DNA from: Elusimicrobiota bacterium
Lineage (GTDB): Bacteria; Elusimicrobiota; Elusimicrobia; UBA1565; UBA9628
NCBI GenBank assembly: GCA_023213235.1
Contig: CP096137.1
Location: forward strand, 3,374,437-3,438,436
Direction: 5' to 3'
DNA: 64,000 bases
Position numbers and translations under genes: made by a program
Shown: positions 26,810 to 33,112 of the stretch, one piece after another
Numbering within the stretch: position 1 is the first letter of the stretch
Layout of the letters: each line of letters opens with the position of its first letter
Notes under the pieces: generated by a model
What the model was told of the DNA's origin: nothing
The model's database searches: none
What the model saw: the letters and a program-made list of their open reading frames with translations, nothing else

Positions 26810-29508
<2,699 letters not shown>

Positions 29509-29546: not shown

Positions 29547-29765
29547 ATGACTTACTCTTTCTCGGCGGTCGTGAATAGAGAGGGCCGGATGTTCGTTGCC
29601 CTCTGCCCGGAGTTCGACATCGCCAGCCAGGGAAGAACCGCAGCGACCGCGACCAAGAATCTGAAGGACGCGGTGCGGTTGTATCTCGAGACGGCATCCC
29701 CGGCCGAGCTCGAAGCCGCCAAGGCAGCCAAGACCGTCGTCAAAGAGCTCAGCGTCGCGGTCTGA
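29547..29765 (+). CDS. hicB: HicB-family antitoxin
   Basis: FVALCPEFDIASQG.T...A..NLKDAV; TTGCGG-17-TACACT-6-ATG. Confidence 0.8.
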   Translation: MTYSFSAVVNREGRMFVALCPEFDIASQGRTAATATKNLKDAVRLYLETASPAELEAAKAAKTVVKELSVAV

Positions 29766-29992
29766 TGGGCGGTCTGCCGGTCGTTTCCGGCCGGGAGGCG
29801 GTTCGCGCACTCGCGAAGGCCGGGTTCACCGAAGTCCGGCGAAAGGGCAGCCACATCATCCTTCAAAAGATATTGCCGGGCACGACGAACACCCTGATCG
29901 TGCCTGATCACAAGGAACTCGCCAACGGCACGTTGCGCGCGATCATCCGGAAATCGGGGCTGAGCGTGGATGAGTTTTCCGCCTTCCTGTAG
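29765..29992 (+). CDS. hicA: HicA-family mRNase toxin
   Basis: AGF..VRRKGSHIIL, IVPDHKEL..GTL.AII; TGATG overlap with hicB. Confidence 0.88.
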   Translation: MGGLPVVSGREAVRALAKAGFTEVRRKGSHIILQKILPGTTNTLIVPDHKELANGTLRAIIRKSGLSVDEFSAFL

Positions 29993-30032
29993 CTACTTGT
30001 AATCAGGGCTCTATCGGGCTACACTCATAACG

Positions 30033-30367
30033 ATGACCAGAAAGTTCGCCGCGATCCTCGCCGTCCTCGCCCTGGCCACCTGCGCCGGGCGCGTGTCGGC
30101 GTGGGCGTCGGCTCCCGGCGACGAGCATGCCTGTTGCCGCGGCGAGCCCTCCGCTCCCGCCGAGGCGGCCGTCATCGAGTGCTGCGCCGTCCCGGCCGCC
30201 GTCGCCGCCGTGCGGGTCCCGGCCCCGGACGTTGTCCTCGTCGGCATGCCCGCCGCCCCGCCCGTCGTGCCCGTCTTCGCGCAGTCGTCCGTCGAGTCTG
30301 AGGCCCCGCCGGGTCCCGGACCTTGCGCGCCGCCGTTCCCGCTCGCGCTCCGCCTCTGTCGGCCTGA
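30033..30367 (+). CDS. DUF2946/CruR-like exported leader protein with probable C-terminal RAPP arrest motif (one base missing between 30302 and 30344)
   Basis: Signal peptide, EHACC and IECC motifs, Pro-rich spacer. The adjacent frame reads ...LRAAVPARAPPLSA* (RAPP at 30344-30355, TGA 30365-30367). Confidence 0.6.
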
Positions 30368-30419
30368 CGTCTCAAGAGCATCCTCAGGCCGTTCCCAAAA
30401 TTAAACAGAGAGGTCTATT

Positions 30420-30551
30420 ATGAAGAAAGTGATCCTGTCGCTCGCCGTGGTCGCCGCCGCCGCCGTCGCTGCCTACGCGGCGGACTGCTGCGGGCTGAGC
30501 CTGCCGTGCTGCAAGGCGCAGGCGTCCTGCTGCGACGCGGCGAAGAAGTAA
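30420..30551 (+). CDS. Unannotated 43-aa secreted cysteine-rich peptide
   Basis: SD AGAGAGG; MKKVILSLAVVAAAAVAAYA-ADCCGLSLPCCKAQASCCDAAKK*; host-like codons; followed by a terminator. Confidence 0.8.
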   Translation: MKKVILSLAVVAAAAVAAYAADCCGLSLPCCKAQASCCDAAKK

Positions 30552-30568
30552 GCGCTCCGATCCGAACG

Positions 30569-30606
30569 GACGCCCCTCGGGCCTCGGCCCGGGGGCGTCT
30601 TATTTC
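30569..30606 (+). terminator. Intrinsic terminator after the Cys-rich peptide
   Basis: GC stem GACGCCCCTCGGGCC / GGCCCGGGGGCGTC followed by TTATTTC. Confidence 0.65.
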
Positions 30607-31280
30607 TTGAGCTGGGCGGGCCAGGTCTTCTTGACGGCCTTGAGGATCGAGTCCGCGACGGAGCGCGCGGATTCCTCGAACGAGTAGACGCTCGCGACGT
30701 CGGAGCCGGTCCACAGCACCTCGCCCGTCTGCACGTAGACGAGGCGGGCGCTGACGCCGAGGCGGCCGTACGACGTCACCGTGCGCGGCTCGCGGCGGAC
30801 GAGACGCTTCGTGCGGTAGCCCTGGATCTCCGTGGTCTCGGTCTGGCCGGTGGTGCCGTCGGCGTTCTGGACAGTCTTCGTGCGGCGCACGTAAATCGGG
30901 TCCTGGAACGTGTCGACGACCTCGGTATCGACGAGCGACTCGCGCGGCTCGCGGAAGTCGGTGATGCGCCCGAAGAGCAGCGCGTCGACGCCGAGCAGCT
31001 TGCCGGCGCGCTTGGCGTCCTTGGGATCGGAGGCCGTGAGCCCTTTCTCGCGGAGGAGCTTGTCGACCTGCGCGCGCTCGACGAGGCTGTAGCCGGCCGC
31101 CAGGAGCTCCTGCTCGAAGGCGCCGGCCAGGAGCTCGCCGGAGCCGCCGAAGCCGCCGTAGTCGGAGAAGCCGACCACCGCGACGCGCTTGACCTTCGCG
31201 AAGTCGAAGTCGGCCTTCACGGCGACGGTCGCCGTCGCGCAGGCGCCGAGCAGCGCGATCAGGGGCAGGAGCTTCCTCAT
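30600..31280 (-). CDS. CsgG/LpoB-like lipoprotein
   Basis: Lipobox LGA-C from ATG 31280; RVAVVGF, YSLVERAQVDKLLRE, GKLLGVDALLFG, ARLVYVQTGEVLW. Confidence 0.75.
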   Translation of the reverse strand: MRKLLPLIALLGACATATVAVKADFDFAKVKRVAVVGFSDYGGFGGSGELLAGAFEQELLAAGYSLVERAQVDKLLREKGLTASDPKDAKRAGKLLGVDALLFGRITDFREPRESLVDTEVVDTFQDPIYVRRTKTVQNADGTTGQTETTEIQGYRTKRLVRREPRTVTSYGRLGVSARLVYVQTGEVLWTGSDVASVYSFEESARSVADSILKAVKKTWPAQLKK

Positions 31281-31305
31281 GCCGCCGATCCTAGCTTTTA
31301 TCGGG

Positions 31306-32139
31306 CTAGAGGGCCCATTGCGCGACGTTGACGCCGGCCAGCGCGTCGCGCCCGGAGGCGCGGCGGTGCTCGTCGAGGCCGAGCCAGAAGGTCTCGATGG
31401 CCTCGAGCGCCTTCTTGCCGCCCTTGAGGAAGCGCTTCGCGTCGAAGCCGGGCTGCTCGAACGTCTCCTCGAGCTCGCGCCAGACGTTGACGCCGTGGCC
31501 GGCCTCGATCTCGGCGTGGAACTTGAAGAAGCCGAGCGGGATCGCCTCGAGATCTTCCGACGCCCGGCGTTCATTGACGGCCTCGAGGCCTCGGATCAGC
31601 TGGCGCCAGAAGTTCCCCGCCTCGAGCGCGGGCCCCGCGCCCAGGCCGGAGGCCGCCCAGCACTCGATCGCGAAGGAGGCGCCCGCGCCGATCATCGGGT
31701 CATGCGAGCCGTAGGTCTTGTCGAGGCCGTTGAGGAAGGCCTTCGTCGCGTCGGAGGCGGAGGCCCAGCGGCCGAGCTTCATCGGCTCGATGCCGATGAC
31801 GGCTCCCGCGTCGCGCAGCCAGTTGAGGTGCGCGTTGCCCGTCGCGAACGTGCGCCCCTCGACCGAGCCCGTGCGCGGGTCGATGCCGACGCCGCACTCG
31901 TTCATCAGGATGTTGCGCGCGCAGCGCTCGCCCTCGAGCGTGCCGGCGTTGACCATGCGCTTCACCTGGAGCACCAGGAAGTGGTTCGAGAACACCGAGA
32001 ACTGCGTGATCAGCTCGGCGACCTGCTCCTCGTCGGCCTCGCCGCGGGCGAACCAGGCGGTGAAGGGATTCGCGGTGATCACGGGGTGCGTGAACAGCTC
32101 GCGGCGCACGACGGCTTTGAAGGCTTCGAGATCTTTCAT
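31306..32139 (-). CDS. Heme-oxygenase-like dimetal oxidase (PqqC/TenA/CADD superfamily)
   Basis: HPVITANPF N-terminus, ILMNE, AHLNW, FAIE and FHAEIEAGH (H-x3-E-x2-H) ligand pattern. Confidence 0.65.
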   Translation of the reverse strand: MKDLEAFKAVVRRELFTHPVITANPFTAWFARGEADEEQVAELITQFSVFSNHFLVLQVKRMVNAGTLEGERCARNILMNECGVGIDPRTGSVEGRTFATGNAHLNWLRDAGAVIGIEPMKLGRWASASDATKAFLNGLDKTYGSHDPMIGAGASFAIECWAASGLGAGPALEAGNFWRQLIRGLEAVNERRASEDLEAIPLGFFKFHAEIEAGHGVNVWRELEETFEQPGFDAKRFLKGGKKALEAIETFWLGLDEHRRASGRDALAGVNVAQWAL

Positions 32140-32219
32140 GCCCACAGCATACCCCGCGGGCTGTGTTTCTGTGAAGTAGCTAATATTGACATCACTGTTA
32201 ACCTGTGGTTTACTACGGC

Positions 32220-33112
32220 ATGGACCTCTACCAGCTGCGCTACTTCCTCGAGACGGCCCGGGAACTCAACTTCACGCGGGCCGCCGCGAACCTCGGCGTC
32301 TCGACGCCGGCCGTCAGCAAGAGCGTCGCCCTGCTCGAGCGCTCCGTCGGGCAGCCCCTGCTCACGCGCACCCGCCGGCTCGTCCAGCTGACCCAGGCCG
32401 GCGAGCGGCTCAAGGTCCACGCCGAGCGCGTCTTCGACGAGGTCGAGGCGGCGCGCCTGGACCTGCGCGGCGAGGCGGGCTCGCCCGCGATGCTCAAGAT
32501 CGGCAGCCGCGAGATGATCACGAACTACCTGCTGGGGCCGTCGCTGTTGGAGCTGAGGAAGCTGCACCCGTCGACGCGCACCGGCATCTACGAACTGGGC
32601 CCCAAGGAGATGGCGGCCGCGCTGAAGAAGAACCAGATCGATTTCGCGTTCTACTACAGCGCCGAGATCCCCGATCCGTCCCTCGAGATCCGCCGTCTCG
32701 GCCATCTCGATTCTCACGTCTACGCCGCGCCGTCCTTGTGGAAGGGCGCCAAGGCGCCTAAGACGTTCGACGAGGTACGCAAGCTCCCGTTCATCGCCCC
32801 GCGCTATTTCGGCGCCGATCCCGCGGAGGCAAGCCTCGACGGCTTCCCCGATCAGGAGTCCCCCGGACGATCCAGTACGAGGGCGAGTTCCTCGAGACCC
32901 ACCGCCGCTTCGCCCTCGACGGCATCGCCGCCGCGGTCCTGCCCGACTTCACGGTCAAGCGCGAGTGGAAGGCCGGCCTGCTCGCGCGCCTCCCGGGGCC
33001 GGAGCTCGGCCGCGAGATCTACTTCCTGAAGCGCCGCGGGCGGACGCTCCCAAATGCCGTCGACGCCTTCGTCGACGTCGTCGCCCGCTCCATCAAGCGC
33101 GTCGCCTACTGA
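32220..33112 (+). CDS. LysR-family transcriptional regulator (frameshift near 32865)
   Basis: MDLYQLRYF...NFTRAA..L.VSTPAVSK...LE; divergent from the dimetal oxidase. Confidence 0.88.

Follow-up and report, generated by a model that had tools for sequence, protein, structure and literature searches.

In the 64,000-nucleotide (nt) stretch of DNA analysed here, called the window (assembly GCA_023213235.1, contig CP096137.1, positions 3,374,437 to 3,438,436 of the forward strand, from an Elusimicrobiota bacterium), lies a candidate metal-sensing arrest switch. It would form a self-contained unit of about 600 nt, composed of a promoter, a leader gene, an RNA switch, a peptide gene and a terminator. 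The leader protein carries a putative signal peptide, two vicinal Cys pairs and, close to its C-terminus, the sequence Arg-Ala-Pro-Pro (RAPP); the peptide gene encodes a tiny, presumably secreted Cys-rich product. The features of the unit are as follows.

29997-30025, + strand: promoter, read from the sequence, with the -35 box TTGTAA (29997-30002), a 17-nt spacer and the -10 box TACACT (30020-30025).
30033-30367, + strand: leader gene of about 111 amino acids (aa), reconstructed from the sequence and its relatives; the assembled frame continues to 30404.
30315-30317, + strand: C-run that is short by one base in comparison with the DNA of the intact relatives at loci L029 and L033.
30344-30355, + strand: putative RAPP arrest motif, codons CGC GCT CCG CCT, conserved across the family.
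30353-30359, + strand: predicted anti-Shine-Dalgarno (anti-SD) sequence, CCUCUGU in the window and GCCUCUC in most relatives.
30360-30391, + strand: predicted inner hairpin CGGCCUGA / UCAGGCCG, which holds the leader stop codon in its 5' arm and stacks directly on the anti-SD/SD helix.
30407-30413, + strand: Shine-Dalgarno (SD) sequence AGAGAGG of the peptide gene, 6 nt ahead of the ATG, read from the sequence.
30420-30551, + strand: gene of the 43-aa pre-peptide, recognized as an open reading frame (ORF) and by its homologs, starting 52 nt after the leader stop codon.
30569-30608, + strand: intrinsic-terminator-like hairpin GACGCCCC...GGGGCGUC followed by the T-tract UUAUUUCUU, from a sequence scan.

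The leader family

The original prediction described a leader ORF at 30033 with a signal peptide and two Cys pairs; its coordinates are right, and this arrangement is conserved in the family. The codons of HACC lie at 30126-30137 and those of the second CC at 30180-30185. As judged by eye, the N-terminus is signal-like, with a Lys/Arg-rich n-region, a hydrophobic core and AWA. Cys17 in the signal region is invariant in the family, as are H32-x-C34-C35 and C51-C52, while the segment between the second CC and RAPP is poorly conserved and rich in Ala, Pro and Val.

About 45 relatives with an intact leader, found in related genomes and large protein collections, all come from uncultured Elusimicrobiota. 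Homologs number 22 among 5.8 billion proteins, and a leader-family profile recruits only 20 clusters from 1.84 billion representatives, leaving aside thousands of DUF2946 proteins; nearly all of these homologs end with RAPP plus 2 residues. An in-frame RAPP had been predicted for homologs, and this holds for all relatives with the full motif; every full-length relative carries a RAPP-type C-terminus in frame, following the pattern ...PPGPxTLRxAVPARAPPLA*. The motif is RAPP in 42, RGPP in 2 and RSPP in 1 of the 45 leaders, and it is followed by just 2 residues in 37/45. The second CC and the Arg of RAPP lie 53-55 residues apart in 40/45. The leaders are 101-128 aa long, with RAPP inside the final 8 residues, and are separated from the downstream gene by 41-55 nt. 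Variants of the motif (RGPP twice and RSPP once) occur among L020, P0044, P0038, P0046 and P0048, two of which end with ...GLSPPPAALA and are devoid of Arg-x-Pro-Pro. Such natural variants offer a ready series for probing arrest strength.

The original prediction cited CruR of Bordetella, a DUF2946 protein, as a precedent. The leader itself does not belong to this family: PF11162 (DUF2946) gives no match to the window ORF or to 9 family members even at E <= 10, a whole-genome search with PF11162 leaves this locus untouched, and the family has CC pairs instead of CXXC. No meaningful Pfam or NCBIfam match was obtained for the leader, the peptide or their homologs.

Reading frame of the window leader

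In the assembled sequence, the frame that starts at 30033 and the frame that contains RAPP are separate. The adjacent frame reads GPAGSRTLRAAVPARAPPLSA from 30302 (also ...RTLRAAVPARAPPLSA), with LSA between RAPP and the stop codon at 30365-30367. A single added base rejoins the two frames. The original prediction expected the missing base within 30302-30344, and comparison with its closest relatives now locates the loss at the C-run 30315-30317, where L033 has GGGCCCCAGACC, L029 has GGCCCCCGGACC and the window has GGTCCC-GGACC. Downstream of the shift, the RAPP frame is intact in the window and 100% family-like to the stop codon. The frameshift is most likely a homopolymer error of the assembly, because the aconitase gene of the window shows the same type of defect and the closest relatives of the leader are intact. 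The source genome is a single contig of 3.8 Mb with 68.6% G+C and is only 83.6% complete. Homopolymer errors in genomes assembled from long-read metagenomes can conceal such leaders from annotation.

The aconitase gene (window 26810-29508) is split into two frames with the break near 27320-27334, where 1 nt is lost at a six-C run (GTCCCCCC-GAGACC, as against GTCCCGCCAGAGACG in L018). The gene of a LysR-type regulator (32205-33029) seems to shift frame near 32842, in its C-terminal part; beyond this point it encodes a Ser-, Arg- and Pro-rich tail, probably through a further indel error. Frame breaks are also found elsewhere in the source genome, in a second RAPP leader and in an OEP gene. The original prediction counted about 25 genes broken by the same defect. 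The aconitase gene is one such case. A crude frame-switch heuristic, which flags 37 places in the window and mixes ordinary gene boundaries with frameshift candidates, is too coarse to confirm the number.

If the frameshift were genuine, the leader of this strain would be a pseudogene or a deregulated variant: its ORF would stop at TAA (30402-30404) just ahead of the SD, so that a ribosome would traverse the entire switch and constitutively couple the two genes. This would match the sequence as given, and the anti-SD of the window is indeed weaker (CUG UCG in place of CUC GCG) and its SD less occluded than in relatives. We consider it quite improbable, given the same C-run loss in aconitase, the other conserved genes that are split in this incomplete genome, the family-like sequence past the shift and the intact closest relatives. 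Programmed frameshifting was also considered and rejected, as all relatives are in frame.

Promoter and start of the leader mRNA

The -10 box of the window ends 7 nt ahead of the leader ATG, which has no preceding SD. TAyACT is located 6-9 nt before the start codon in 13/13 compared leader loci, paralogs included, and also in L039, and cTTGnnn is located 17 nt upstream of TAyACT in most of them. The window promoter scores under the threshold of a simple promoter scan. The leader mRNA is probably leaderless, since the conserved -10 box is only 6-9 nt from the start codon and the window ATG lacks an SD.

Pairing of the arrest codons with the SD of the peptide gene

Two stems had been drawn in the spacer, CTCTGT (30354-30359)/ACAGAG (30405-30410) and GGCCTGA (30361-30367)/TCAGGCC (30384-30390), and both are found in the minimum-energy fold of the window. 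Folding of 15 spacers (14 orthologs and the distant L039) gives one shared architecture, in which the Pro-Pro-Leu codons and the SD form an outer helix, an inner hairpin with the leader stop codon in its 5' arm is stacked on it, and an A-rich segment is single-stranded. The outer helix of the family, also selected by RNAalifold, is GCCUCUC/GAGAGGU; GAGAGG is kept in the 14 orthologs. The CUCUGU/ACAGAG pairing predicted for the window is a weaker, register-shifted local variant of it. In 11 of the 14 spacers the SD is computed to be 94-100% paired; its unpaired probability, 0.00-0.06, is lower than in at least 95% of the sequences whose upstream part was shuffled. The predicted anti-SD/SD helix beside the arrest codons is conserved, and the computed occlusion of the SD is significant family-wide. 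When the footprint of a RAPP-stalled ribosome is forced to be single-stranded, the unpaired probability of the SD becomes 0.1-0.6 in 12 of the 14 spacers.

Selection appears to act on the RNA and not on the protein alone, for three reasons. CCT accounts for only 7.5% of Pro codons in the genome, yet every compared ortholog with the GAGAGG SD uses it for the second Pro. In L039, the SD is GGAGGC and the anti-SD is relocated to GCG-CCU-CC (GCCUCC), both sides having changed together. In the paralog L023, with an SD of the GGAG type, the Ala-Pro-Pro codons GCUCCCCCCU pair with AGGGUGAGGAGC. The wobble base of the neighbouring Ala codon takes all four bases (T, C, A, G) among orthologs.

The inner hairpin occurs in every ortholog with 3' arms that vary (GUCGGGC, UCAGGCCG, CAGGCCG, GCGUCAG and CAGCC); these arms are reported descriptively, the MAFFT alignment of the spacers being too poor at the inner hairpins for a formal pair count. 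The single Rfam match within 29900-30700 was to ctRNA; it fell on the terminator and scored under the threshold.

The peptide gene

The original prediction pointed to an ORF missing from the gene track 52 nt after the leader, with a terminator behind it. The ORF (30420-30551) and the hairpin (30569-30608) are both in place, and codon comparison marks the small ORF as a genuine gene kept by purifying selection. Against L033 its codons show 4 synonymous and 0 non-synonymous changes, the L033 peptide being 100% identical, and against L029 they show 11 synonymous and 2 non-synonymous changes. The predicted signal peptide MKKVILSLAVVAAAAVAAYA (30420-30479), judged by eye, is followed by the predicted mature peptide ADCCGLSLPCCKAQASCCDAAKK (30480-30548), which has about 23 residues in the form ADCC-x5-CC-x5-CC-x5, with 6 Cys (26%). 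Only nine homologs are found among 5.8 billion proteins, and further ones were read from loci. The family has the form MKK-hydrophobic-AAYA|A(D/N)CC-x4-5-CC-x3-5-CC-x2-5. None of the 15 sequences departs from the six Cys or from the AYA-A cleavage context, and differences in length are whole codons. Hairpins equivalent to the terminator are located 3' of the peptide gene in L033, L034, L036 and L039.

Among 401 sampled Elusimicrobiota genomes, strong peptide matches are confined to the genus of the window. A search for related loci with the peptide alignment gives four loci, none beyond those already found, a sequence search of the PDB with the peptide profile gives no match, and no precedent for vicinal-Cys periplasmic copper peptides emerged from a search of the literature. 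Elusimicrobiota of low G+C content encode other small secreted Cys-rich peptides at L049 (G219:C40) and L052 (G139:C196), one of them being MKKVLLSILILITVVTLSYARCCGCGNDGCGTDETCSTSECPQK; the regions ahead of these genes showed no obvious RAPP leader.

Metal context of the leader family

At the window locus, the leader is followed only by the uncharacterised CC peptide gene and the terminator. Paralogous leaders are found in richer surroundings. At L023 the leader is succeeded by OEP and then by a multicopper oxidase containing a heavy-metal-binding domain; at L024 it is succeeded by OEP, a CusB-type adaptor that also contains such a domain, and an RND pump. At L022 (G025:C53, 119-2610, minus strand) the RAPP leader is followed by a 39-aa CC-x4-CC-x3-CC peptide, an 83-aa Cys protein that is weakly CopL-like (E = 0.009), OEP, a 142-aa protein and the start of a probable RND pump. 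A second Cys-containing leader in the source genome (G000:C1:1258230-1258600; L038 630-1001), which ends with RGRAPPLA* and is frameshifted, precedes the gene of a 230-aa membrane protein whose N-terminus is Met-rich (MKPAGGEEKAPMKMAM), which is followed by an OEP gene split into two frames. A link of the leader family with metals is suggested because paralogous leaders head operons for Cus-type efflux and multicopper oxidase, and an efflux-linked role of the CC peptide fits the position of the L022 peptide between the leader and the pump.

RAPP-containing upstream ORFs with Cys pairs also precede genes for DsbA, thioredoxin and Sec components (PMC12992588). The leader might accordingly be a redox or secretion monitor, in which disulfide formation, as for the Dsb-type RAPP upstream ORFs, or Sec activity, as for SecM and ApdP, releases the arrest and the peptide is a thiol buffer or a disulfide-rich bioactive peptide; the CC...CC...CC pattern could make a disulfide ladder. 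This is the least probable of the explanations considered. No sec, yidC, dsb or thioredoxin gene is found downstream at any locus seen, the paralogs precede Cus-type pumps and a multicopper oxidase with heavy-metal-binding domains, and neither modification nor immunity genes are adjacent to the peptide gene. Two narrower roles were rejected on the same neighbourhoods, that of a Sec monitor as no sec genes are nearby, and that of a ribosomally synthesized and post-translationally modified peptide (RiPP) or bacteriocin as modification and immunity genes are absent there.

Comparison with known systems

The pairing of such a leader with such a peptide had been put forward as undescribed. The switch mechanism itself is already described for CutF-cutO, and CruR is a copper-sensing switch of related kind. 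In Rhodobacter capsulatus, CutF is an exported Cys leader whose Pro-rich stall melts a stem-loop that shields the SD of cutO (PMC9973294; bioRxiv 10.1101/2025.02.05.636593). Like CutF, the present leader is a small Sec-exported (here predicted) protein with Cys motifs and a C-terminal Pro-rich stall sequence, has a short spacer with a stem-loop over the next SD, and presumably acts in cis via its own translation. CutF-like proteins have been operationally defined by a length of <150 aa, PP within the last 15 residues, a signal peptide and a same-strand gene <=1000 nt downstream (PMC9973294). All four properties are found in the present leaders, the signal peptide being judged by eye, and so is the CutF-like trait of a predicted SD-shielding stem-loop downstream. 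OEP/RND pumps and multicopper oxidases, which here follow the paralogs, have likewise been reported downstream of CutF-like proteins and RAPP/RGPP upstream ORFs (PMC9973294; PMC12992588). The differences from CutF are vicinal CC pairs (HxCC and CC) in place of CxxxC, a true RAPP in place of a PPP-type tail, an anti-SD within the arrest codons, a probably leaderless mRNA, occurrence in Elusimicrobiota, no match to DUF2946, and a 43-aa pre-peptide in place of an enzyme or transporter as the target.

CruR (Bp2923) of Bordetella pertussis, a DUF2946 protein, exerts RAPP-dependent copper control with a ruler between CXXC and RAPP (PMC9426467), and its arrest has been shown (PMC12992588). The present leader resembles CruR in its putative signal peptide, in a Cys motif at a ruler-like distance from RAPP and in RAPP lying 2-3 residues before the C-terminus, and its paralogs, like CruR, head metal-homeostasis genes. 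In CruR, however, about 45 residues separate CXXC from RAPP, whereas about 54 separate CC from RAPP here and CXXC is absent from the family. The cruR-bfrG spacer has 162 nt and involves Rho-dependent termination, in contrast to spacers of 41-55 nt with predicted SD occlusion; the target of CruR is a TonB-dependent transporter instead of a tiny peptide, and the Pfam model misses the present family. ApdA, ApdP and the Streptomyces lividans set are also small secreted proteins with a C-terminal RAPP (rarely RGPP) and a same-strand gene downstream (PMC7897499; PMC10951233; PMC12992588). Unlike ApdA and ApdP, which monitor Sec components, the present leader has no sec or yidC gene beside it, and its conserved His and Cys point to metal.

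Bufferins, which are periplasmic copper-binding RiPPs derived from Cys (PMC11626156), resemble the present peptide in being ribosomal and Cys-rich, with a signal peptide and a plausible role as an envelope buffer of soft metals. The present peptide differs from them in its vicinal CC pairs and in the absence of an adjacent MNIO/DUF692 or partner gene, and it is probably unmodified because no such gene adjoins it. The known copper storage proteins are much larger, and metallothioneins of bacteria, for example SmtA and MymT, reside in the cytoplasm. What is new is the leader family, marked by vicinal CC pairs and a ruler of some 54 residues, together with its phylum, the proposed use of arrest codons as anti-SD, the probably leaderless start and, above all, the target, a pre-peptide with a predicted mature form of about 23 residues and 26% Cys.

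Proposed mechanism

We favour, as fairly probable, a nascent-chain metal-sensing arrest switch of the CutF/CruR type that controls the tiny secreted Cys peptide, preferably in the metal-induced direction. Transcription would begin at or beside the leader AUG. In the free mRNA, CCG-CCU-CUC would pair with the SD (GAGAGG), with the stop-codon hairpin stacked on this helix, so that the peptide gene is closed. The exported leader would use its two vicinal Cys pairs (H-x-CC and CC) as the sensor, and its C-terminal RAPP would arrest the ribosome with CCG (30350-30352) in the P-site and CCU in the A-site, an assignment taken from the structures of ApdA and ApdP and from the CruR toeprint (PMC10951233; PMC12992588). 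The footprint of the stalled ribosome, about 15 nt downstream, would mask the anti-SD and the 5' arm of the hairpin, and the SD would thereby be freed about 58 nt downstream, far enough for a second ribosome; this geometry is deduced from established ribosome dimensions. Upon arrest, the distance of about 54 residues between CC and RAPP would bring the sensor to a point immediately past the ribosome tunnel, within SecYEG or on its far side. Binding of a soft metal to the nascent Cys pairs (Cu(I) most likely, possibly Ag, Hg or Cd) would prolong the arrest and induce the product, a periplasmic thiol-rich metal buffer or efflux chaperone of about 23 residues. The layout of the unit, its conservation, the computed family-wide occlusion of the SD, the two-sided change in L039 and the metal genes beside the paralogs are results of the analysis; arrest, export, the identity of the metal, the switch direction and what the peptide does are inferred.

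Several observations weigh against such a switch. The anti-SD/SD switch stands as originally predicted in so far as the pairing is conserved across the family as GCCUCUC/GAGAGGU, but the window fold alone is not significant (z = -1.03 against shuffles), and its SD has an unpaired probability of 0.22 compared with 0.31 in shuffles. The modelled stall frees the SD only partly in the other spacers and brings no change in the window and L012. Covariation between anti-SD and SD had been expected in homologs. RNAalifold finds none in the outer helix of close orthologs, where this helix is invariant, and the only covariation comes from L039 and the paralogs. The support is otherwise conservation rather than covariation, and each strand of the helix is under a constraint of its own in any case, coding on one side and the SD role on the other. 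No recognisable metal-function gene adjoins the leader-peptide pair at the window locus, and no sequence homology of the leader to DUF2946 is detectable. Six thiols would become oxidised in an aerobic periplasm. The frame of the leader is broken in the window as assembled. Finally, the leader stop codon lies 3-4 codons past RAPP and inside the hairpin, so that any terminating ribosome would open the SD, and part of the design would be explained by coupling.

Plain translational coupling would in fact need no regulated arrest: RAPP would be a constitutive pause or serve another role, and the leader would be a functional periplasmic Cys protein. It leaves unexplained the near-invariant RAPP/RGPP, the tail of about 2 residues and the 53-55 residue ruler kept over a poorly conserved segment, and RAPP-like motifs are avoided in bacterial proteomes outside arrest peptides (PMC12992588). 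We therefore regard coupling alone as highly improbable.

The direction of a metal-sensing switch may also be opposite, as originally predicted and as in CruR, where copper relieves the RAPP arrest (PMC9426467). Arrest would then be the default, metal binding, folding or pulling by Sec would release it, and the peptide would be a metallophore or an uptake helper made under metal scarcity. RAPP and RGPP alone suffice for strong arrest in several sequence contexts (PMC12992588), and the anatomy of the leader and the RNA is compatible with either direction. Induction by metal, the direction of CutF, is favoured because the same leader type (HxCC, CC, about 54 residues and RAPP) heads efflux and oxidase operons, which are expected to be induced rather than repressed by metal. 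No importer, TonB receptor or PepSY gene is found nearby at the loci examined, and the spacer of 41-55 nt with SD occlusion is closer to that of CutF than to the Rho-dependent spacer of CruR. The CruR-like direction thus seems unlikely.

A bolder proposal, offered tentatively and with less than even confidence, concerns the product of the metal-induced switch. The peptide might represent a new class of unmodified, Sec-secreted mini-metallothionein with three vicinal Cys pairs, which, in the Elusimicrobiota periplasm, buffers soft metals or passes them to efflux pumps and is made on demand by a dedicated nascent-chain metal sensor within about 600 nt and with no transcription factor. It would then be a candidate for a new periplasmic metal buffer. 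The metal-induced switch, if true, would extend nascent-chain metal sensing to a phylum that has no cultured model for it and to a sequence family missed by current profiles, with a new kind of output, a tiny secreted Cys peptide instead of a pump, an oxidase or a receptor. The compact unit, in which a leaderless promoter, arrest codons serving as anti-SD and a 43-codon gene would be combined, might be a handy minimal system for studying how, across SecYEG, the peptidyl-transferase centre responds to a ligand in the periplasm.

Flanking genes

The locus is flanked by aconitase or HicAB on one side and by a CsgG-like lipoprotein on the other, or, in relatives, by unrelated genes. A CsgG-like neighbour is also present at L031, L036 and L039. 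In the window, the gene of this lipoprotein (30600-31574, minus strand) is convergent with the peptide gene, and the terminator overlaps its stop codon; the terminator may work in both directions. The gap between the aconitase stop codon and the leader promoter is filled by a HicB-like/HicA toxin-antitoxin pair (29547-29992; HicA_toxin, E = 2.4e-18). The leader starts within about 50-70 nt of aconitase in L005, L006, L033 and L034, and other small ORFs occur there in L029 and L020. The gap between aconitase and the leader looks like a hotspot for small insertions.

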